Notes under the pieces: generated by a model
Databases searched by the model: none
The model's input: only the letters and a program-made list of their open reading frames with translations
Told to the model about the DNA's origin: nothing
Source: Nematostella vectensis
Taxonomy: Eukaryota
Assembly (NCBI RefSeq): GCF_932526225.1
Contig: NC_064037.1
Location: 3,248,996-3,312,995 of the forward strand
Direction: 5' to 3'
DNA length: 64,000 nucleotides
Made by a program: the position numbers and the translations under genes
Part shown: piece after piece, positions 3,001-64,000 of the stretch
Numbering within the stretch: the stretch's first letter is position 1
Layout: each line of letters starts with the position of its first letter

Positions 3001-3654
3001 TTGTCGACTTCCTTTGAACCCTAAAAATTAAAGTTTCCACGGGATTTCACGTATTTATTTATATTTTGATCCTCGACCCCAAAGTATTAGCGATTTTTCT
3101 TGGTCGAGTCATCGGGATGTGCACTGGTACATTCCTGTAGGTTCTGTCACGTTTTAGTGCGTTTTTAGCCCAGTGATCAGGGACACTCGGATGTGGTGAC
3201 CTAAGCTTCAACGTGGTACGATTATAAAAAGCATCAAATAACCAAAAATTTGGCATTAGAGGAATTTAAGGTATAATACCAGAAGTGGATTTGCTGACGA
3301 CATTATTACTCATCTCCGCCGCTCCCGATTAGACTCTTCCGCCTTCCCTTCACCCACCTCCCCCTTCTCTCTCTTGGCTGACGTATGATCGTTATTGCTA
3401 ACAAGCTATTAAGTTATATGGCATGACTATAAAAAATTACAGGCAAGTTGTAGTGGTCTGCATAGGCTTGATATAGTCAGGGCAATAAAATAAAAAAATC
3501 TTTTCCACGCCTCTGTGAGACTAGTTTCGCTGACCGAGCGTTAGCTCTTTGTTTAAGCAAAACTAAGCTTTTGTAAGAATTTTGTAGATTAACAATACTG
3601 TATGTGCGAGAATTTCTACAAACAGGCGGAGCTTTTATTTTTCTCGCTTTTTAA

Positions 3655-4251: not shown

Positions 4252-6554
<2,303 letters not shown>

Positions 6555-12320: not shown

Positions 12321-13131
12321 CTCGCATAAAAAACGGGGTTCTCGCCGCAAAAGACCATTGGGGGGCCCTAAGGGAAAGTCTATTTATTATCCAAAGGGGG
12401 AGGCGTGAGATTTTTTATAAAAGGGATAAAATTAGTTGACCCAGGAAGAACAAAATTTTCCATGCCCCCCCTTACGCTTCCCCCATATTTTTGGTGCCCC
12501 CCCTCCCGAAAATCGAAGAAAGAAGGAGCAAAGAAAGGAACGGCAATGACAATGTTAAAGGAACGCGATGAAGAGATTAGCTGCAAGCTGGACAGAGAGT
12601 GGAGGGGAAAAAATTGGCTGAAAACATTTATTCAGAAAAATTGAAGGCACTCAATTTCTTAAAGATGCGACTAACTCCAGGTTGCAACCTGATAATGGTT
12701 GATGCTATAGATGACGTAAAAGAAGGCTTTTCGATCTTCTCCTTGCAAGAAAAGCGCAGCATGAAAAAAGAGAAAAGAAAAAGAGCGAGGAAGACAGATA
12801 AAAAGATATGAACGAGGATTTTGATGATGGAGAATAGGCGCTTATAGCATTAAACTGTTAAAATGTTTTGTTTATATTTTAGATATTGAACATAAGCACT
12901 TTATAATATTATATAGCGGAAACCATAAAAAGATGTATTTAGGGTGTATACAGGTTTGCATTGCATAGATAAAATGTGGCTTAATACGTATCCTGGACCT
13001 GGATTGTGCATGCCAAATAACTGCCCCCAAACCGAGACAAGTCTGATTAGACACTCCGTCAAATCTTATAGAAGGAACAGCACCCAAAGGAATCAGTGAC
13101 CCCCCTTTTTAAATCCAAACACTTTGACACC

Positions 13132-13162
<31 letters not shown>

Positions 13163-14221
13163 ACTTTAGACCTGAAAAATTTATCGAGGCCCCCAACAGT
13201 ATACCCCCTCCTCGGGATAATAAATGGACTTTCCCTAAACAATCAGATTTGCGAGCAATGGTGAGTAGCGGTCAAAAATCTTGATACCAAGGAAGGAATT
13301 CTATGCATATTTCTTTATTGTTTTAGTTAACTTTTTTAACATTATAGAATATAGAATATGTAACGCCTGAATATTTCAATTAAATGTAAAATGAGGACAT
13401 GAACTTTCATTAGATCGCGCACATTTCTGCATAGTTCAGTTTACTTTTCTTTTCATGTTCCAGAGCACTAGTTCGCTAGATAGCGGTGCTGGAGCCAAAA
13501 TCTCCAGCCTAGCCGTAAAGCTTTATTATGCTGCCATACGGTGATTCAGCGTATGTCTGGAGGTATGGTTTATTTTTTTTCTTTTGTATCATCAGATCTG
13601 AGGAGGTTCGATCCTCGGGCAATTGGCTCTGCCTTTTTTCTATGTCTTATCACCTCTTACGCCCACCACTACGCGACTGGTTAATTCTTTTGAAGCAATG
13701 CGTGTTTTTAAAGCAATCAAAACAATCCTTAGTTTCACCTGAAATCATTGAACCTGCCACTGGCGCCCTCCCCTCCCCTTCTCTTGAAAATGTACATATG
13801 ATAATCTTATAGTCTATGAGAAAGTCTGTTGGGATAAACTGACATACATGTGCAGGAGATATTTGGTAATCTATGGAGCAGTCATTATTTATCGGGAGTG
13901 AGGGCTACTAAGTTGATTTGTTTTTCGGTTCAGATATTTCGACCGTCCCCTAATCTATAGTACAAAAAATCCCCCCGAAAGGAGTACCCACAGGACAAAA
14001 AAATTCAATCCCAAAAAATTCAGGACAAAAAAATTAAATGGTTACATATGTAACAATTCAGAGATATTTGTTAGTTTGTTGAAATTATATTTAGTCGTGA
14101 AATGCCCTTCAAAAGTACCGTACATTCCTTCAGGAGCATCAACATTTTAAAAACTATATGAGCACTCTTGCAACGGGACAAAAAAAAAAAGTAAAAAGTA
14201 AAGAAAAGTCAACCGGGATAT

Positions 14222-20928: not shown

Positions 20929-23900
20929 GTACGTGTTGAAATCCGCATGTAAACAAAACATTGTTTACGTCCTAGTTGCTGAATTTCTCGTGTGTTAAAC
21001 TCATTTGAACTTGATCGAAAAGTTAATGTCTAAGTACGAATCGATTTCTAGCAGTAAACCTCAAACCGATTATTTATTATTGTAATGAATTTCACAAGTT
21101 TGAAGTGAATTTGACCAGAATGTGTTACTTTACTTATCCAAACAGTGACCCTAAGAATACGGAATGTTATCATTTTGAGGTTTCAGAGTAACCGCAAAAA
21201 TGACTATCGGCTTTTATTGTTTATCGACTTGTATGATAATTTACTTTATGAAAGAATTTATCCTCATACAATGAGTTTCATGCTTTGATGGCTCTGGAAT
21301 GATTCCCTAGGGGTTCCGGAAAGTGTTATTGAAAGGTTTCTCGTGGAATTCAGGAGACAATTACACACACTCTGTTATCTTTATTGATCTTCTTTAGGTT
21401 ATTTAAGCTTTTCCTTGGGAATTTATAATAAATTCTAACTTAGACCAGCTTTGCCTTGTGAATATTACAACATCAAATACAATAAACACATCTTGATAAT
21501 TTATAAAACAATTCCCCATTTCCTTAATATCGTTTTATTGAATTATTATCACACAAAAAATACTGTAAAGCAAAATTATTTTGCTTGTGTTTTTTTTTCC
21601 AGAATTGATTGTCAAATTGATTCCTTAAAGAATGCAGACAAAGTCACCTCCAGATATGAGATTGCCCTTCCCATATTAATTCTAAAGCTAGAACAATTTC
21701 TGATTACATCCATGAGTATACACATTCAATTTTGAAATTCAAGTATAATTATATCATGGACTCATCCACTACATATTTCCTGACCAATATGATACAGTCA
21801 TCTTATTATAATGTCAGATACTGAAATAACTCCACATACATCACTCCCCAAGCTCTTGACCTCTGTATCAGGATTTTCAGAAAGATTAGATGTGATGCTA
21901 ACTTATCTCTGTACTGCTGTGGCAAATGAAGCTCACACTGATAAAATGTCTCCTTTTTACTTGATAAATTGTCTTTTTTTAATACCCTCTTATTTTAGAC
22001 ATCACAATCTTTACATACACTAAGAGATTTAGCTTGAAGAAAGACTTGTTTTGTCTGTTGCAGTTATCAAGTTATGGCTTTAATTCACACATAGATTATT
22101 TGTTTACTGCATAGCATGGCAAAGAATCCTGATTGTTTTTATTGCTGTTTTATGAATTAAAAAATACAACATTTAATCTTTTGTGTGGATCAGTCAATAT
22201 TATTTTGATCTTTACATCTAGTATATTGTATTTATTTTATATGAAAGTCAGCTTTCTGTATTTGGCCATATGAAGCCAATAAGGTTGCAGAGCAACCATG
22301 CAACTGTTTGAGACCCATTTTAAGTGCTGTTGTGGCTGGCTAAGGTTTCAAGTGTTATATATCATGATTATTGGCACACAGTGTTGAATTCATTTTAATG
22401 TCTCTAGAGACATATTGCCTTACAGAACTAACATCTAAAAGATATAACTTTGTATTTTCAGTCAAATCAGAGTCATACCCATAAAAATCATGGATGATTT
22501 TCAATTGGTTGCACATTTACCTTAATTTCCAGCCCTGCCTTATTATTATTGTTTATGATCCAGCTTGTTCACAGGATCAATATAAAGATAACCTTTCATT
22601 TGAAGTGTTTTGCCTTTTCATAGACTTGTTTTTATTATATCCTGGTACTCAACATGTAAAATAACCAAACTTTAATTATCCTGTCTGGATAGGAACACCA
22701 GATTGTATGCAAAATGAATGCTGTCTGGTGGGTTCAGACTTACTTTGTGGCTGAAATAGCTTTGCTCTTAAAGTGAGACATCTAATTGATAAAAGCGAGA
22801 AGTGGAATTTAGATGTTACAAGGAAATAGAATTTTAATTAAAAGCATTACTCTTGTAATAATGCTGCTTACTAAATCGACTGAAAAGAAAAGCATTGAAT
22901 TTTTTTTCAACCCAAAGAAGGACGCCCACCACCTGTTGCAATAGATCTCTAGTGACAACAAATACAAAGGATTTTCTTCTAACTGATAAAACTAATTTCT
23001 AATTAAATCAAGTTATTTTAGAAATTCAAGAAGTGTGTGGCTAAAAATATTGTAACTAAAAAAATTGACACCTGCAACCTTTTTTTTTGGTATACTTTGG
23101 AAGGTTCTTATTAAGGTGAAATGCAATGTTTCTGTAAACTCAGCAATTTATTTTCCTGGATTTCCATCAAGATTGTTAAAAAAGGCACCAGCAGCTTTTT
23201 ACTAATATTCGAAATACACAAAGGTAAATAAAAAGGTTGAACACTTTTTAGTAACAGGATTTTTGGCCGCTGCTTACTTAACCTTATTCAGACTGGGGGG
23301 GGGTCTGTTTAAGCCCCCCCTCCAGGAAAATTGCTTAACTTCTGAACCATAGCAGCTTACAGGCTAAGACTTGGTGACTTTTCCTAAAAATCTATCTGCA
23401 GACGTTTTGATGCCATTGACATGTTGAGGAGACACTCCTTGTTACAATGGCAACCGTTTTTTCACACATAAGTTTCCCAAAAACTGAAAAGTAGTGAATT
23501 TTTCATATTTAGGTCCTGTTTCTCAGATTTAATTGCCTGTTCTGACTTTATAAGTTTGTTAAGGTGACAAGTTTCACAACTGGGCTAGAATTTTTTACCT
23601 TAAATATTTTGGGGGAGGGGTGGGTAAATTTTGCTTTTCAAAGATTTACTAGATGACATTAAAAGGTAATATTATGTATTTATCATTACTAGGAGCAGTA
23701 ATACATGCATGCAAATCCTTTTTTCCAAAATAATGGCAGACCCAAGATGGCAGAAATTCTTACAAAAAATTGATTATAAACGCTTTTATGGCCTTTTTCC
23801 ATTGTAAAGCTGTAAAAAGGTTGATTCTGACATATCTGAACGATGAAAGATGATTTCAACCTGATATCTGATAATTTAAGTATTATTTAAAAGAATAGGT

Positions 23901-26900
23901 AGACATATTTATGACCTCATTGTGACATCATAGTTGATTCAACCACACCCAAAATAGGGCATGACAATTCTTTGCATGCTGGTGATCATTGTCTTTAAGT
24001 TTGATGGTCATAGCCTAAATGGTTCATGAAATACAGAAGGGAGGCTTTTTTAGCTCCCCTCCAGTCACAGACAGCTAAAAAAGCCCAGTCTGAATAGGGT
24101 TAAAAAACAATTTGTTCTACCTTTCTTTATTTTTATTTTCTTTTGATATTAGCTTTATCACTTACTTATACTGTAGTTGTCTTTTTTCCCTTTATTTACA
24201 GTAGAGCCAATTTGTTGATTTATATGTGACCAACCCAATTATTATTGCCCATGAGGTACATTAACTAGGCAACCCAACTGTGTAAAGGTCCACCTTTCAG
24301 GCGTTATCAAGCTAACACAAATATTGGATAGGCCCTTCAAGTAATAGTTAACCCCAAAGTCCTTGAACCCCATAACAGTTTTACTTTGATACACCAACGA
24401 GATAACAGCTTCTTAATCTAAGCATCATGACATTTGTGGCAAAGGTTAACCTAATGAACTGTCAAGCCAATCTATTGTGTTGTACTCGAACCAACAAGTT
24501 TCAGCATGTTAATGAAATAGGTTTATCTGAAGCACTGATGAAAATTCTGGTTTGCAAAAATCACTAAGTTTTGACTTTGAGAATTTGAGACTAGTCACAT
24601 TAACCAATATTCACAAGTAAACTTCAAAAAAATCAGTTTTGCTTTTGATCCTGCTATTATGATTCTTCAGTCTGTGCTAGAAAGCCAGGAGTATTTCAGT
24701 TTTTGTTGACTCTATAATTCTGAAGACTGTAGCTATGCAAGCAACGATTTTCATGACATATTGTGAAAAGGTACTGTACCAAATTCTAAAAATCACTGAG
24801 CACATGTATGCTACATTTATTGATAGCTCATGTTATTGTACCATTGTATTATTACAACAGTGGTTTGTTATTGTGACCTTTAAATATTTTTGAATGTGTT
24901 ATTTAAATGTGTTGGGTTTATGGGTTTAATTTTTGATAACCATGACTTGAGCAGTGATAAAAGCTTCCAAAACATCCTTTAAGGAAATAAAGCATATTAT
25001 GCCAGGTTTTTATTTTCAAATTTTAATTTTACATTGTTGTACTACTTTTGAAAAAGGTTGCCAGAAAAAAAAATGCCTTAAAACTTTTTTGTTTTCAAAA
25101 ATATAGTGTAGTGAATGTCATAAAGTAGCTCAATAATAGCATAGTTTAAGCACTCAGTTAATCAGTTCTACCTATTTACTGTGAACTGCTCCTTTGGGTT
25201 CCTTTTTCTTTCTTTCGAGCCGTTCTACATAGTTCTATTTAAAAAGAGTAGGAGTATGTGTGTGTAGGAATTCATGTTTATAGTATTAATCTTTTTATGT
25301 CAGGTCAAGCAATAGTGTAGACTCCATTAACCCAAAATAAATGAGCATGTCTATTTATTAATCAACTTATCTGTCTGTAAATCACCTAGCCTAGACAAAA
25401 AGCAAAATAAATAAAAAAGAAATATGTTAAGGTTCAGGTAAGCAGTTCTTAGTTAGGAAAAGAATGAAGTTTTTCCTGCAAACCAAAAGACAATAATGAA
25501 TAGGAACTGTTTCAGGAAAAATACTTTGTGTGATGTTTTTATAAATATTACACAAGAAAGCAGAAGTCAATAATTGTAATAGATTGTAGAGTGTAATTTG
25601 TCATTAAAAATACTTAAACATGACTTACTTTTTATCACATTTGAAATTATTCAAAATAGTTAGCGGTCCAAGTCCAAGTTTAGTGGATTATTCTGCAGTA
25701 CCCTTATTCATGTATGAATTATTCAACCACTGAGCAGTAGTAAACTAGTGTCACCTTTAACCAGGGGCTTTCCTGGACCATTTGTGTCACCTTTACCAAG
25801 GGCTTTCCTGGACCACTTGTGTCACCTTTACCAGGGACTTTCCTGGACTATTTGTGTTACCTTTGCCAAGGGCTTTTCCTGGACCACTTGTGTCACCTTT
25901 ACTAGGGACTTTCCTGGACCATTTGTGTCACCTTTACCAGGGGCTTTCCTGGACCATTTGTGTCACCTTTACCAGGGGCTTTTTTAGACCATTTGTGCCA
26001 CCTTTACCAGGGGCTTTCCTAGACCATTTGTGTTACCTTTGCCAGGGGCTTTCCTGGACCATTTGTGTCACCTTTACCAGGGACTTTCCTGGACCATTTG
26101 TGTCACCTTTACCAGGGGCTTTCCTGGACCATTTGTGTCACCTTTGCCAAGGGTTTTCCTGGACCATTTGTGTCACCTTTGCCAAGGACTTTCCTGGACC
26201 ATTTGTGTCACCTTTACCAGGGGCTTTCCTTGACCATTTGTGTCACCTTTGCCAAGGGCTTTCCTGGACCATTTGTGTCACCTTTGCCAAGGGCTTTCCT
26301 GGACCATTTTGAGCTCCAAGCCTGCCATTTAAATTTTTGGTCATTCTGGTGTATTTTGGTATATATATTTTTTTGCCTTTTAAAGAGATTAAAAAAAACT
26401 GGTTATGCCTTGGCTTGTGTATTGAAGGCAGTTAGGCCCGTGGTTTACAACCAACATTTTGTGTTGTGAGATATTTCTGTAAAAATCCCAATGCCCAAAT
26501 GTCTTTGTTTCATCTGTAGCCCAAGTCTGTGGAGGAGGTGGCATCAAACAAGGCGTGGCATGATGCAGAGAAGGTGTGGGTGGTCCACAAGGCAGGGTTC
26601 TCAGGTGGTAGGGTGCTGCGCTTAAAGCCGTCAGAGGGTGCTAATGAGGATGAGATGCCCATGTGCCAAGTCAAGCTGGACCATGGAGGGGAGCTCATTA
26701 CTATTGAGGAGGAGAACATTGAGAAGGTGGGTATAGAAAAAATATAGTTTTTTTAATCTGCTAGATTTTGCGGGCTTTGTGGATTTTGTTGGGGGAAAAA
26801 GCCTGCATACCCAAAATATGAAAGGGGAATACAGAAAAAAGAGCTGGCAAATGCAAGAGAACAGCCGGCTGCTATTTTGAACTCTGTGAGTGTTACCTTT

Positions 26901-29900
26901 TTAAGATTGGTACATAATGGGTGGGGGACAAGAGCGGAGGGGGGGTGTCTTTTCTTTATGACGAAAAAGATGTACACTTTATAAAAACTTGACTGTTCTA
27001 GGGACACTAGTGAGTGATGAAATTGGTTTAATCTCATGCTAAATGCAATGCCACAAATCCTAAAAATCCTACTGATCTTGTGGGTTATCAACCACAATAA
27101 CCATAATCATCAATTTGTTATAGAGATTGCTTTGTTTATATTGTTTTGCATACTGTATGACAATCTTTTAAAATGATTTTGTTTATACATCTTTATTTGA
27201 AGGAAGGTGGTTTTTAGATTTTTATGTATGTGTAAGTGTGCACTTCAACTAAGGCTCAGTGCAATGAAAATTTGAGCTGTGCAAGTTAAATACCAAAACT
27301 GTCTGCACATGTGGCTAGTATAAATCATGAGCTTTGAGCCCTAGGTTGACATCGTTTAACCCTCCTGATGTGACGTGATACCTTGTATTTGCAGGCCAAC
27401 CCTCCTCAGTATGATAGAGCAGAGGACCTTGCCACCCTGCGCTACCTTAACGAGTCCAGCTGCCTTCACACCCTGCGTCAACGATATGGAAGTAACCTCA
27501 TCCACACTTACGCCGGACCCAACATGATTGTCATCAACCCCCAGCAGCAGCTTGCCATCTACACTGATAAGGTAAAGTAGCAACTTGCCATCTACACTGA
27601 TAAGGTAAAGTAGCAACTTGCCATCTACACTGATAAGGTAAAGTTGCAACTTGCCATCTACACTGATAAGGTAAAGTAGCAAACTTGCCATCTTCACTGA
27701 TAAGGTAAAGTAGCAAACTTGCCACCTACACTGATAAGGTAAAGTAGCAAACTTGCCATCAACCCTGATAAGGTAAAGTAGCAACTTGCCATCTACACTG
27801 ATAAGGTAAAGTAGCAAAATTGCCATCTACACTGATAAGGTAAAGTAGCAAACTTGCCATCTACACTAATAAGGTAAAGTAGCAAACTTGCCATCTACAC
27901 TGATAAGGTAAAGTAGCAACTTGCCATCTACACTGATATGGTGAAGTAGCAAACTTGCTATCTACACTTATAAGGTAAAGTAGCAACTTGCCATCTACAC
28001 TGATAATGTAAAGAAGCAAACTGAGCAGCTAGAAGCAATTCCAAGAAGTGCAGCAACTTATTCTATGCAAGATCAAATAAACTAGTTCCCTGGCTATCTT
28101 CTTCCCCAGGAACCAACATCTTACAATAATACCTCGAGTTTTAATAAGTAATAGTTTACCCCACAATGTGTTATTCTCCAAGCATCATGATCCCATTATT
28201 GCTAAGGCCTAATATAAACAGCGTTCTCTTCATGTGCTGTTCCAAGTTAAAGTATATGCAAATGAAGATAAAACAACCAACTTTGTTCATTTGCATGTAT
28301 TTGAATTTGGAAGAGTACGTGAAAAGAATGGTATCTAAACTATGCCTAAGTGTTGTGAAGCTTCCTTAAAACTGTGTTAAGCTCCCTTACAGGTTATCCA
28401 GATGCCCTGATGTCATAATGACATCATATTGTGTTGCTATGGCAACACAATATATCATTTTGTTCCTCTTTGTCAGATAATGATTCTTTGAAAATTTGGT
28501 CATAATTGCTCCAATGGTTCAAAAGTTATGGATGGGGGGGGGGGGGGGGGGGGGAGCGCAAGAGCCCCCCAGTCTGAATAGGGTTAAAACTAACTGTGTT
28601 AAGCTCCCTTACAGGTTATCCAGATGTTCCGTGGATGTAAGCAGGAGGATATGCCACCACACATCTTTGCCACAGCCCAGACGGCCTACCGCAACATGCT
28701 CGCAACCAGGATAGACCAGTCTGTGGTGCTGATGGGGTCTAGTGGATCTGGAAAGACGACTTGCGCAAAGCATATCCTCCACTACCTCTCATCGATAGCT
28801 GGCTCTTCTCACTCCCCTGTCACAGGTAACACTGCTATAATTTGGCACATGTCCCCGTTTATTCCTGCTTATAAATATATACCCTTGTATGCCACACCTC
28901 TCTCTGAGAGTCATGTTGACTTGAATCAATGATATACCACTCCTATCTCCTCCTTCAATGCCCACATTTTCTTATAAACAATTTCTGCTTTTGTCTTTCC
29001 AGATCAAAATTTCGAAGGGATCTTTGCACTGTTAGAGTCATTTGGAAATGTGCAGACCATTTTGAACAGGAATGCCACCAGATTTACACTTCTTGTGAGT
29101 CTAGACTTTGATTCAGCAGGAGGACTGACTTGCGGATCCCTGCAGGTAAGCTTGCTTGTCATGCCTGTGGAAAAAAGAATATGTGGAATTGTTGTGGTAG
29201 TGCTAGGAGAATGGTATTGACAGGTGGTGTGCCACACACCTGGTAACATAAGAGGTATAGCGGTGCTAGGTGTAAATAACTAGGACATGAGTTGGAGGGC
29301 TGGCTTGCACGACCTTTCAGATTAGTCATAGTGCAAAAGGAAATGTGATATGTAAATAACAAATAACATCCTTAAATAAAGGTGCAAGTTATGGTGTATA
29401 CAGATAGAGGCCTAGTACTTATGGACCCTTGGCTTATCTACTTGTTTTTCAGACATTTTTGTTGGAGAAATCACGGGTTGTTCGGCAAAAGGAAGGCGAA
29501 GGGACTTTCAACATATTCTATTATCTGTTGTCTGGCAGCGACCCAAAGCTAAGGTAACTAAATGCACAATAATGTACAGTAAGTACATTTGTGAGCCTTC
29601 TGCATGCCTTGTTGGAATCAGTAAATTTAGGATTTTACCCTTTTTTAAATTTGCATAGTCAGTTTTAGCTTGACATTTTGTGTGGGAAAAGTCTGGTAAT
29701 GGCCTTTAAAATTCTCTTTTTCCCCTCGAATTCTCTAAAACATAGATGCCAACCCCCGAAGTTCCAAATCAGATTTTTTGGAGAGTGGAGTTTTATAGCT
29801 TTTTTTATAGCTTCTATATTTGCAGAAACGCGACAACCAGTTTAAAGATTACCACGCATCTTTAAATTTTTCTGAAAATGCATCAATAGCTACGCATTGT

Positions 29901-60058: not shown

Positions 60059-64000
<3,942 letters not shown>

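Follow-up and report, generated by a model that had tools for sequence, protein, structure and literature searches.

The locus examined here poses a question of identity: is a non-coding segment bounded by TTAA and by short inverted repeats a transposon, to which superfamily does it belong, and has its family been described before? The segment, here called copy 1, is located, in sense orientation, within the intron that separates the PDZ exon from the SH3 exon of a myosin-XVIII gene of a coral-like (anthozoan) animal, inside a 64-kb window (the whole stretch of DNA that was analyzed). It is very probably (probability ca. 0.9, judged from sequence comparison) a non-autonomous piggyBac member, an internal-deletion derivative of a ~3.3-kb autonomous piggyBac-like transposon that was pieced together from two metagenome contigs (L030 and L079). 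At most, its family is new within a kind of element already known.

Boundaries and internal organization of copy 1

Copy 1 measures 818 bp from one terminal inverted repeat to the other (23282-24099), or 826 bp when both TTAAs are counted (Table 1). It is bounded by two 20-mers, TTAA plus CCTTATTCAGACTGGG (23278-23297) and CCCAGTCTGAATAGGG plus TTAA (24084-24103); the arms match at 15 of 16 positions (19 of 20 with TTAA included). The 16-bp repeats, given as CCTTATTCAGACTGGG and CCCTATTCAGACTGGG, start with CC[C/T]T and fall within the 12–19 bp by which piggyBac termini are defined (PMC2872659, PMC5381638). An earlier note on this DNA had claimed TTAA duplications, terminal repeats initiated by CC[C/T]T, and the lack of an open reading frame, and all three were borne out; TTAA flanks both sides, and the longest internal ORF was 56 aa. 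The span that it had proposed, 23278-24093, was correct at its left edge but stopped 10 nt short on the right, where the TTAA ends at 24103.

The window was searched for inverted repeats ≥20 nt long that have no more than one mismatch and arms within 2 kb. Three distinct ones were found, copy 1 among them; the same search of 20 mononucleotide-shuffled windows yielded none in 19 and two in the remaining one. An Rfam search returned zero matches inside copy 1. Sub-threshold, miRNA-like Rfam matches at 28206-28346 fall in a hairpin repeat distinct from it.

Table 1. Coordinates of copy 1, copy 2 and their associated features in the window
Feature	Position	Strand	Remarks
Left TTAA target-site duplication, copy 1	23278..23281	.	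Read directly; matches TTAA at 24100-24103
Left 16-bp terminal inverted repeat	23282..23297	+	CCTTATTCAGACTGGG; G-run/“A” end, a type assigned by family comparison; 1 mismatch to right repeat
5' arm	23282..23635	+	Homologous to first ~354 bp of L030/L079 composite; 72%, 361 columns, colinear
Subterminal G9...C7 hairpin-forming tract	23293..23325	+	Overlaps end of terminal repeat
Conserved subterminal block TTGGTGACTTTTCCTAAAAATCTATCTG	23369..23398	+	93% identical to 579-bp MITE subfamily consensus
Internal region	23636..23967	+	Replaces ~2.8 kb of autonomous element, with the transposase ORF in its entirety
CCAAGATGGC block, YY1-like motif	23733..23751	+	Common to 5' UTR of autonomous element and 579-bp MITE consensus
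Decayed TGACGTCA-type palindromes	23912..23932	+	TGACCTCA..TGACATCA
3' arm, “B” end	23968..24099	+	Homologous to last ~136 bp of autonomous element, 3' of transposase stop
Right 16-bp terminal inverted repeat	24084..24099	+	CCCAGTCTGAATAGGG
Right TTAA target-site duplication, copy 1	24100..24103	.	Read directly
35-nt direct repeat, upstream copy	28370..28404	+	100% identity; duplicate intron 3' splice site and first 12 exon nt
Copy 2	28405..28583	.	179 bp from the end of a family member; other end missing
TTAA abutting surviving end of copy 2	28584..28587	.	
35-nt direct repeat, downstream copy	28592..28626	+	Genuine acceptor cag at 28612-28614; myosin-XVIII motor exon from 28615

The two arms of copy 1 are its recognizable parts. 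The 5' arm is also ~73% identical to L090 and L065, and the 3' arm matches the end of L079 at 74% over 137 columns. In the internal region, no homology was detectable except for the short CCAAGATGGC block, and tblastn detected no remnant of a transposase. This YY1-like block may have a functional meaning. The DNA around the TTGGTGACTTTTCCTAAAAATCTATCTG block is ~70% identical to the consensus of a 579-bp MITE subfamily (see below), and the block itself is a candidate transposase-binding or cis-acting site. Across the family, palindromes of the TGACGTCA type are situated ~170–190 bp away from the B end; intact copies occur in L079 and in the MITE consensus.

Homopolymer runs just inside the terminus had also been reported for this element and for a second copy in the window. 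They are real in both and are a family-level trait, but the right end of copy 1 differs, with CTTTTTT and then a G-rich stretch instead of a G-run and C-run. At the left end, the runs are G9 (23295-23303) and C7 (23314-23320), and the tract that contains them has a DNA folding energy of -13 kcal/mol (z = -2.3).

The family and its autonomous relative

The 20-mer terminus was present in 89 metagenome contigs in an exact scan. It occurred once in 596 Gb of prokaryotic genomes, and this one hit, on a contig that carries a bacterial-MAG label, is a genuine member of the family. In host-associated metagenomes, the family is frequent enough to mark host DNA. Twenty-three complete elements were recovered. 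At those second termini that were not forced by the search pattern (n = 20), the flanking tetranucleotide was TTAA in 12 and TCAA, TTAC or TTAG in 8; the background frequency of TTAA is 0.009 per position. The “A” end, 5' of the transposase start, consists of the terminal repeat followed by the G-run/C-run hairpin, and the “B” end, 3' of the stop codon, consists of the terminal repeat, CTTTTTT, and a G-rich stretch. One end of each type was found in 20/23 complete elements, and two ends of the same type in 0/23; copy 1, with one A and one B end, is like its complete relatives. The G-run/loop/C-run motif was detected in 36 of 107 family termini, compared to 1% of random 60-mers. The 579-bp MITE subfamily, which has the same terminal repeat, resides in a related host; its 16 copies are homogeneous in size and 76–95% identical to the consensus. 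The same ordered conserved blocks are found in this subfamily and in parallel deletion derivatives of ~950 bp.

A nearly complete autonomous relative was reconstructed from public metagenome contigs. The contigs L030 and L079 overlap and together contain a ~3.3-kb element that is bracketed by the family's terminal repeat and subterminal sequence. L030 carries the A end followed by the N-terminus of the transposase, and it overlaps L079 at 80.5% identity over 293 bp. L079 carries the identical terminal repeat and TTAA; ca. 400 bp inside is the 3' end of the transposase ORF, which matches Pfam DDE_Tnp_1_7 (E=2.7e-31). The 3,288-bp reference element is a composite of these two contigs, which are 80% identical to each other, and copy 1 is colinear with composite positions 5-358 (72%) and 3149-3284 (74%). 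The conceptual transposase was aligned to that of piggyBac from the moth Trichoplusia ni (PDB 6X67; E=5.4e-36). D268, D346, and D447, the three catalytic aspartates of piggyBac, each have a D opposite them in the alignment, which also covers the C-terminal Cys-rich motif. The closest named relatives are the “piggyBac transposable element-derived protein 3” of Exaiptasia diaphana (70% identity) and Branchiostoma PGBD4 (51%). The L079 transposase contains frameshifts and one in-frame stop, and that particular copy is therefore inactive; an intact 710-aa homologue (P0122) is located on a 2.9-kb contig that has neither terminus. An autonomous partner encoding a DDD piggyBac transposase, for which the earlier note had suggested searching, is found in L030/L079; it derives from contigs of a different, related host, not from the source genome, and is ~72% identical to the window copy. 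Within the 64-kb window, tblastn with seven piggyBac transposases and pieces of L079 detected no transposase (E≤1e-3).

The colinear alignment of copy 1 to both ends of the autonomous element identifies it as an internal-deletion derivative. Copy 1 has kept ~350 bp of the 5' end and ~135–200 bp of the 3' end and lost the transposase gene. If the mechanism established for piggyBac applies, the transposase would come in trans from an autonomous relative and bind the 16-bp terminal repeats and subterminal sites, excision would proceed via hairpin intermediates, and reinsertion would take place at a TTAA, which would thereby be duplicated. The flanks of all termini among the 89 loci were searched; only filled orthologous sites and no TTAA-only site were obtained, so the argument for mobility is a structural one. 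L022 and L053 were compared as a potential empty site, but the right side diverges and the site is not a clean one.

The earlier description of copy 1 as a non-autonomous piggyBac derivative is thus upheld by ends homologous to an element encoding DDE_Tnp_1_7, by the TTAAs, and by the CCYT repeats. Strictly defined MITEs are usually under 500–600 bp, homogeneous in size, and high in copy number; copy 1 is non-coding, but its 818 bp are more than classical MITEs have, and “non-autonomous element with an internal deletion” is the better term for it.

Copy 2 and a duplicated splice acceptor

A second, truncated copy had been proposed to end at 28587, and this was confirmed: a terminal repeat of identical sequence occupies 28568-28583 (28568-28587 with its TTAA). 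Copy 2 contains G21 (28534-28554), C6 (28565-28570), a GAACCAT block and a TGATGTCATAATGACATCA palindrome. It was compared by eye and by BLAST with the right end of copy 1 and with L079, and the ordered blocks GAACCAT, ATGACC and a TGAYGTCA palindrome are common to copy 2 and the family end. When both copies were compared with the whole window using BLAST, just three termini and no further internal homology were found. Short matches between the sequences 3' of copy 1 and 5' of copy 2 (D8/D11), considered as a shared repeat, were not colinear and were treated as chance.

Copy 2 (28405-28587) is the one remaining end of another insertion, made at a TTAA located 31 nt 5' of the splice acceptor of the myosin-XVIII motor exon (ORF 28624-28932; 71% identical to its orthologue in L002). 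In place of its missing end stands a 35-nt copy of the flanking sequence from the downstream side; a second TTAA (28366-28369) precedes this upstream copy. The likeliest cause would be faulty repair of a double-strand break left by one-ended cleavage or excision, possibly by short synthesis from an empty homologue and subsequent end joining. Copy 2 and the duplicated acceptor would then illustrate, on a small scale, how break repair associated with a transposon can remodel the boundary between an intron and an exon. If the upstream duplicate acceptor were used, a premature stop (VIQMP*) would result in myosin-XVIII. A BCS1 exon that is 76% identical to Acropora marks the host as an anthozoan. 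The myosin PDZ exon has no protein match above 55% identity, and minisatellites are numerous in the window.

It is conceivable, though unlikely, that the conserved blocks are functional cis-elements rather than neutral remnants and that copy 2, by duplicating a functional 3' splice site, has created a decoy acceptor in myosin-XVIII. The blocks concerned are the G-run/C-run hairpin adjoining the terminal repeat, the GGTGACTTTTCCTAAAA block, the tandem CCAAGATGGCGG (YY1-like) motifs, and the TGACGTCA (CRE-like) palindromes. Such blocks could be required for transposition, or they could form a compact promoter scattered through anthozoan genes. For annotation, the region should be masked as a relic of a piggyBac-type DNA transposon and not as regulatory or structured RNA.

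Alternative explanations and comparison with known elements

The possibility that copy 1 derives from a family already catalogued in a coral or anemone repeat library deserves nearly even odds. Many anthozoan genomes have been repeat-annotated since 2010, and copies of this family abound in several public metagenomes. For Acropora, piggyBac/TTAA MITEs together with six piggyBac-like transposons were described in 2010 (PMC2872659), but none of the terminal repeats of CMITE families I–VI and AmiPB1-5 reported there matches CCCTATTCAGACTGGG, and a literature text search for the terminal-repeat string returned only two bacterial papers, neither of them relevant.

It is very improbable that copy 1 is instead a MITE of another TTAA-duplicating superfamily, mobilized by the transposase of that superfamily. 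Kolobok, which has been reported in cnidarians, also makes TTAA-specific 4-bp duplications (PMC9587614), and TTAA alone is therefore no proof of piggyBac. Kolobok MITEs share this duplication with copy 1, but their termini are 5'-RR...YY-3' (PMC9587614), as opposed to 5'-CC...GG-3' in copy 1, and their transposase is unrelated. In L030/L079, it is a piggyBac transposase, of the DDE_Tnp_1_7 type, that is enclosed by the terminal repeat of copy 1 together with homologous subterminal DNA (~350 + 135 bp). On this sequence evidence, L079 effectively refutes a Kolobok origin. Sola, another TTAA-type candidate, was ruled out on the transposase evidence alone. The probability is negligible that copy 1 is no transposon but an inverted repeat arisen by chance, or that its terminal match stems from an unrelated repeat: although copies 1 and 2 share just ~23 nt at the BLAST level within a window rich in minisatellites, comparable inverted repeats are essentially absent from shuffled windows, the 89 contigs with the 20-mer have homologous internal sequence and paired termini, and copy 2 has the ordered blocks of the family end.

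With copy 1 read as an internal-deletion piggyBac derivative, the anthozoan piggyBac repertoire gains a family whose terminal repeat is defined (CCCTATTCAGACYGGG) and whose ends are asymmetric; the understanding of piggyBac biology is unchanged. Human MER85/MER75 and the TxpB-type elements of Xenopus are likewise short non-autonomous piggyBac derivatives that comprise ends only and need a related transposase. These families are linked to domesticated PGBD genes; no domesticated partner is known for the family of copy 1. They also differ from it in host and are unrelated in sequence. MER85 is mentioned in PMC5381638.

The type element, T. ni piggyBac (IFP2; PDB 6X67/6X68), resembles copy 1 in its TTAA target, in terminal repeats that start with CCC/CCY, and in asymmetric left and right ends that carry subterminal repeats. 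It shares the DDD triad and the C-terminal Cys-rich domain with the related autonomous element L079. It differs in its 13-bp terminal and 19-bp subterminal repeats, which are unrelated in sequence; its transposase is only distantly related, and the window copy has none. No description of piggyBac is known to include a G-run/C-run hairpin beside the terminal repeat.

Nearest in host are the CMITEs and the AmiPB1-6 piggyBac-like transposons of Acropora millepora and A. palmata (Wang, Zhang, Meyer & Matz 2010, PMC2872659). The CMITEs are ~100 bp long, with 13–14-bp terminal repeats (CCCTTTCCC..., CCCTTTAAGCCCTA, CCCCTCAGTGTCCG and others) and a 75-nt conserved core. Copy 1, in contrast, has 818 bp, a different 16-bp repeat, and the form of a plain internal-deletion derivative with arms that align to an autonomous element; membership in CMITE families I–VI was rejected, as its length and terminal repeat differ from those of every family in Table 1 of that study (PMC2872659). 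Copy 1 and the CMITE/AmiPB elements are nevertheless alike in their anthozoan hosts, TTAA duplications, repeats starting with CC[C/T]T, non-coding nature, and intronic location, in being derived from piggyBac-like autonomous elements or dependent on them, and in conserved internal blocks that are common to subfamilies.

Copy 1 and its repeat family

Copy 1 is an 818-bp element in a myosin-XVIII intron, and its boundaries read cTTAA/CCTTATTCAGACTGGGGGGGGGTCTGTTTAAGCCCCCCCTCCAGG ... GCTAAAAAAGCCCAGTCTGAATAGGG/TTAAaaa (slashes mark the element ends). Its longest ORF is 56 aa, an Rfam search of it returned no match, and inverted repeats of this quality were almost absent from shuffled windows. The description of this stretch in the earlier note (23278-24093) as a TTAA-flanked inverted-repeat element without a sizeable ORF was borne out, except that its end coordinate (24093) is 10 nt too short. 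The second copy with an identical terminus that it had reported was also located. No transposase remnant was found within the window.

Positions of genes, repeats and candidate elements in the window
Feature	Position	Strand	Remark
BCS1-like gene	~4.2-6.6 kb
Candidate inverted-repeat element	12371-13237
Myosin-XVIII gene	from 19522	+
Myosin-XVIII PDZ exon	19522-~20940	+
Copy 1, 16-nt terminal repeat arms	23282-23297 and 24084-24099		1 mismatch between arms; TTAA beside each
Copy 1, YY1-like motif	23733-23751
Copy 1, CRE-like palindrome	23912-23932		CpG-decayed
Myosin-XVIII SH3 exon	~26523-26729	+
Hairpin inverted repeat	28202-28350
TTAA before upstream copy of direct repeat	28366-28369
Direct repeat around copy 2	28370-28404 and 28592-28626		35 nt, perfect
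Copy 2	28405-28583
Copy 2 terminus followed by TTAA	28568-28587
TTAA after copy 2	28584-28587
Myosin-XVIII motor exons	from 28615	+
T-rich inverted repeat	62475-63167
Minisatellite arrays in and around myosin-XVIII	16.9-17.8, 25.7-26.3, 27.5-28.0, 34.1-39.8, 45.3-46.3, 52.9-53.5, 54.3-55.2, 61.0-61.5 kb

JGI/ENA metagenome contigs were scanned for exact TTAACCYTATTCAGACTGGG, which was present in 89 contigs, most of them from JGI sample Ga0126336 and others from a few ENA assemblies. The same pattern had a single match in 596 Gb of prokaryotic genomes; because that match, located on a contig labelled "MAG: bacterium", is a true member of the family, the chance background is approximately zero. 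On contig L094 (CBDDTI010000487.1, "MAG: bacterium"), positions 4909-5728 hold a genuine copy that is 91% identical to those on metagenome contigs L076 and L062; this contig probably comes from the animal host and was mis-binned. Both termini were identified for 23 elements in the metagenome loci, and 16 of these align to one 579-bp consensus. Within each pair of termini, the second was free of the search pattern. These unforced termini lay beside TTAA in 12 of 20 cases and beside TCAA, TTAC or TTAG in 8, against a TTAA background of 0.009 per position, as is expected for TTAA duplications with some mutational decay.

The family termini fall into two classes. At the A end, a G-run comes directly after the terminal repeat and is joined by a short loop to a C-run; at the B end, the terminal repeat is followed by CTTTTTT..., then by GACTGGGGG and a G-rich/C-rich stretch. 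One end of each class was present in 20 of the 23 complete elements, and same-type pairs did not occur (0/23). Copy 1 conforms to this arrangement: its left end belongs to class A and its right end to class B. A strict motif (at least four G, a loop, at least four C) was found in 36 of 107 termini, compared with 1% of random 60-mers, and the tracts formed modest DNA hairpins on folding. Since the termini of relatives carry this G-run/C-run class, the subterminal tracts that had been remarked upon in the window are a feature of the family. The length of the G-run ranges from 4 to >16 among copies and is 21 in copy 2, a spread that is typical of homopolymer instability.

An autonomous relative and the origin of copy 1

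The B end of metagenome contig L079 reads TTAA/CCCTATTCAGACTGGG. A reading frame heads toward this terminus, with its stop codon ~400 bp inside, and its Pfam match is to DDE_Tnp_1_7 (E=2.7e-31), the family of piggyBac transposases. On contig L030, an A end is followed, ~750 bp on, by the acidic N-terminus of the same protein. The two contigs overlap by 293 bp at 80.5% identity, and joining them gave a TTAA-bounded composite of 3,288 bp. To obtain a conceptual 714-aa transposase, three frameshifts and one stop had to be bridged, so the L079 copy is itself dead. When compared to T. ni piggyBac (PDB 6X67; E=5e-36), D268, D346 and D447 each aligned to an aspartate, and the C-terminal Cys-rich motif aligned as well. 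The closest named relatives of the protein are "piggyBac transposable element-derived protein 3" of Exaiptasia diaphana (70% identity) and Branchiostoma PGBD4 (51%). With such a transposase lying between family ends, the piggyBac affiliation proposed in the earlier note is correct.

Copy 1 is colinear with composite positions 5-358 (72%) and 3149-3284 (74%), and a further short match is found at the CCAAGATGGC block. The colinear match to both composite ends makes copy 1 an internal-deletion derivative from which ~2.8 kb has been lost, the whole transposase included. Two parallel groups of derivatives were found in the metagenome host, namely a ~950-bp group (contigs L094, L076, L062 and L067, mutually 91% identical) and the 579-bp MITE subfamily. 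The block order is the same in both: the terminal repeat and hairpin, GGTGACTTTTCCTAAAATTTATCTGG (93% conserved to copy 1), CCATGGCAACC, tandem CCAAGATGGCGG, TGACGTCA palindromes and the B end. The window versions of family motifs are CpG-decayed (TGACATCA, TGATGTCA), and the terminal-repeat variants GACCGGG and GACTGGG constitute a CpG/TpG pair; these features suggest that the insertion of copy 1 is old and probably methylated.

YY1-like motifs, CCAAGATGGC(G/A)G, were observed in L030, L079, the 579-bp consensus, the intact distant homologue on contig L093 and copy 1, and CRE-like TGACGTCA palindromes were observed in family members. These motifs could act as the promoter of the transposase, as sites bound by the transposase, or in both roles.

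Copy 2 and the myosin-XVIII gene

As a 179-bp end fragment, copy 2 preserves, in family order, the terminal repeat, the G-run/C-run, a GAACCAT block and the TGAYGTCA palindrome, and then breaks off. The direct repeat that encloses it contains the myosin-XVIII 3' splice site plus 12 nt from the start of the motor exon, so that both are present twice; its downstream copy is separated from the TTAA by an extra AACT. If spliced, the upstream pseudo-acceptor at 28392/28393 would open the frame VIQMP-stop. In the simplest history that we infer, a family member would have inserted at the TTAA that lies 31 nt ahead of the splice acceptor, and a break would have followed at or within the other end of the inserted element. 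Repair would then have used either an empty homologue or the downstream flank as the template for a 35-nt stretch, thereby duplicating the acceptor and exon start, and been completed by end joining.

The hairpin inverted repeat directly upstream of copy 2 has 65-nt arms (75% complementary) and a 19-nt loop. It had only far-sub-threshold matches in Rfam (plant miRNA precursor families) and none in the metagenome loci; it could represent a further small MITE. Elsewhere in the window, a candidate element has 22-nt terminal inverted repeats, AGGGAAAGTC(T/C)ATTTATTATCC, that are ~845 bp apart and are followed by G-rich subterminal tracts; its flanks are not TTAA. A 20-nt T-rich inverted repeat (TTACCTTTTTTGTCTTGTTT vs. 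its complement, 1 mismatch, arms ~670 bp apart) may represent either a MITE or a coincidence of low-complexity sequence.

The window is eukaryotic genomic DNA. Its BCS1 exon is 76% identical to that of Acropora cervicornis and ~62% identical to those of vertebrates; the myosin-XVIII PDZ exon had no match above 55% identity in the protein collection searched. These comparisons mark the source as an anthozoan. The myosin-XVIII introns are dense with 30-50-bp minisatellites. One array has 134 repeats of a 30-bp unit across 4 kb, and another has 21 of a 51-bp unit; strand composition is strongly skewed in the arrays, which give rise to long spurious ORFs in both directions. The same PDZ exon occurs on contigs L003 (1-9078) and L002 (ENA ERZ25073755), and only in L003 is it directly preceded by Polinton/Maverick-like genes (type-B DNA polymerase, rve integrase, Pox_A32-type ATPase), which points either to an insertion polymorphism or to paralogous loci that differ.

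Comparison with known TTAA elements

Three features define piggyBac elements, namely TTAA duplications, terminal repeats of 12-19 bp that begin with CC[C/T]T, and a DDD transposase (PMC2872659, PMC5381638); every one of these features that was testable is present in the family. Kolobok elements, which are present in cnidarians, also duplicate TTAA (PMC9587614); membership in that group was rejected, as its RR...YY termini do not fit the copy 1 family. The terminal-repeat string was found in no relevant paper among those searchable. Copy 1 amounts to routine transposable-element annotation. Mildly unusual points are limited to the subterminal hairpin and internal motif blocks, which are conserved, and to the duplicated splice acceptor beside copy 2. 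CMITE families (piggyBac/TTAA MITEs) have been known from Acropora since 2010, together with six piggyBac-like transposons (PMC2872659); they differ from the copy 1 family both in terminal repeats and in size. The copy 1 family is new at most as a family: its kind is well known, and elements of that kind are already documented in this host group.
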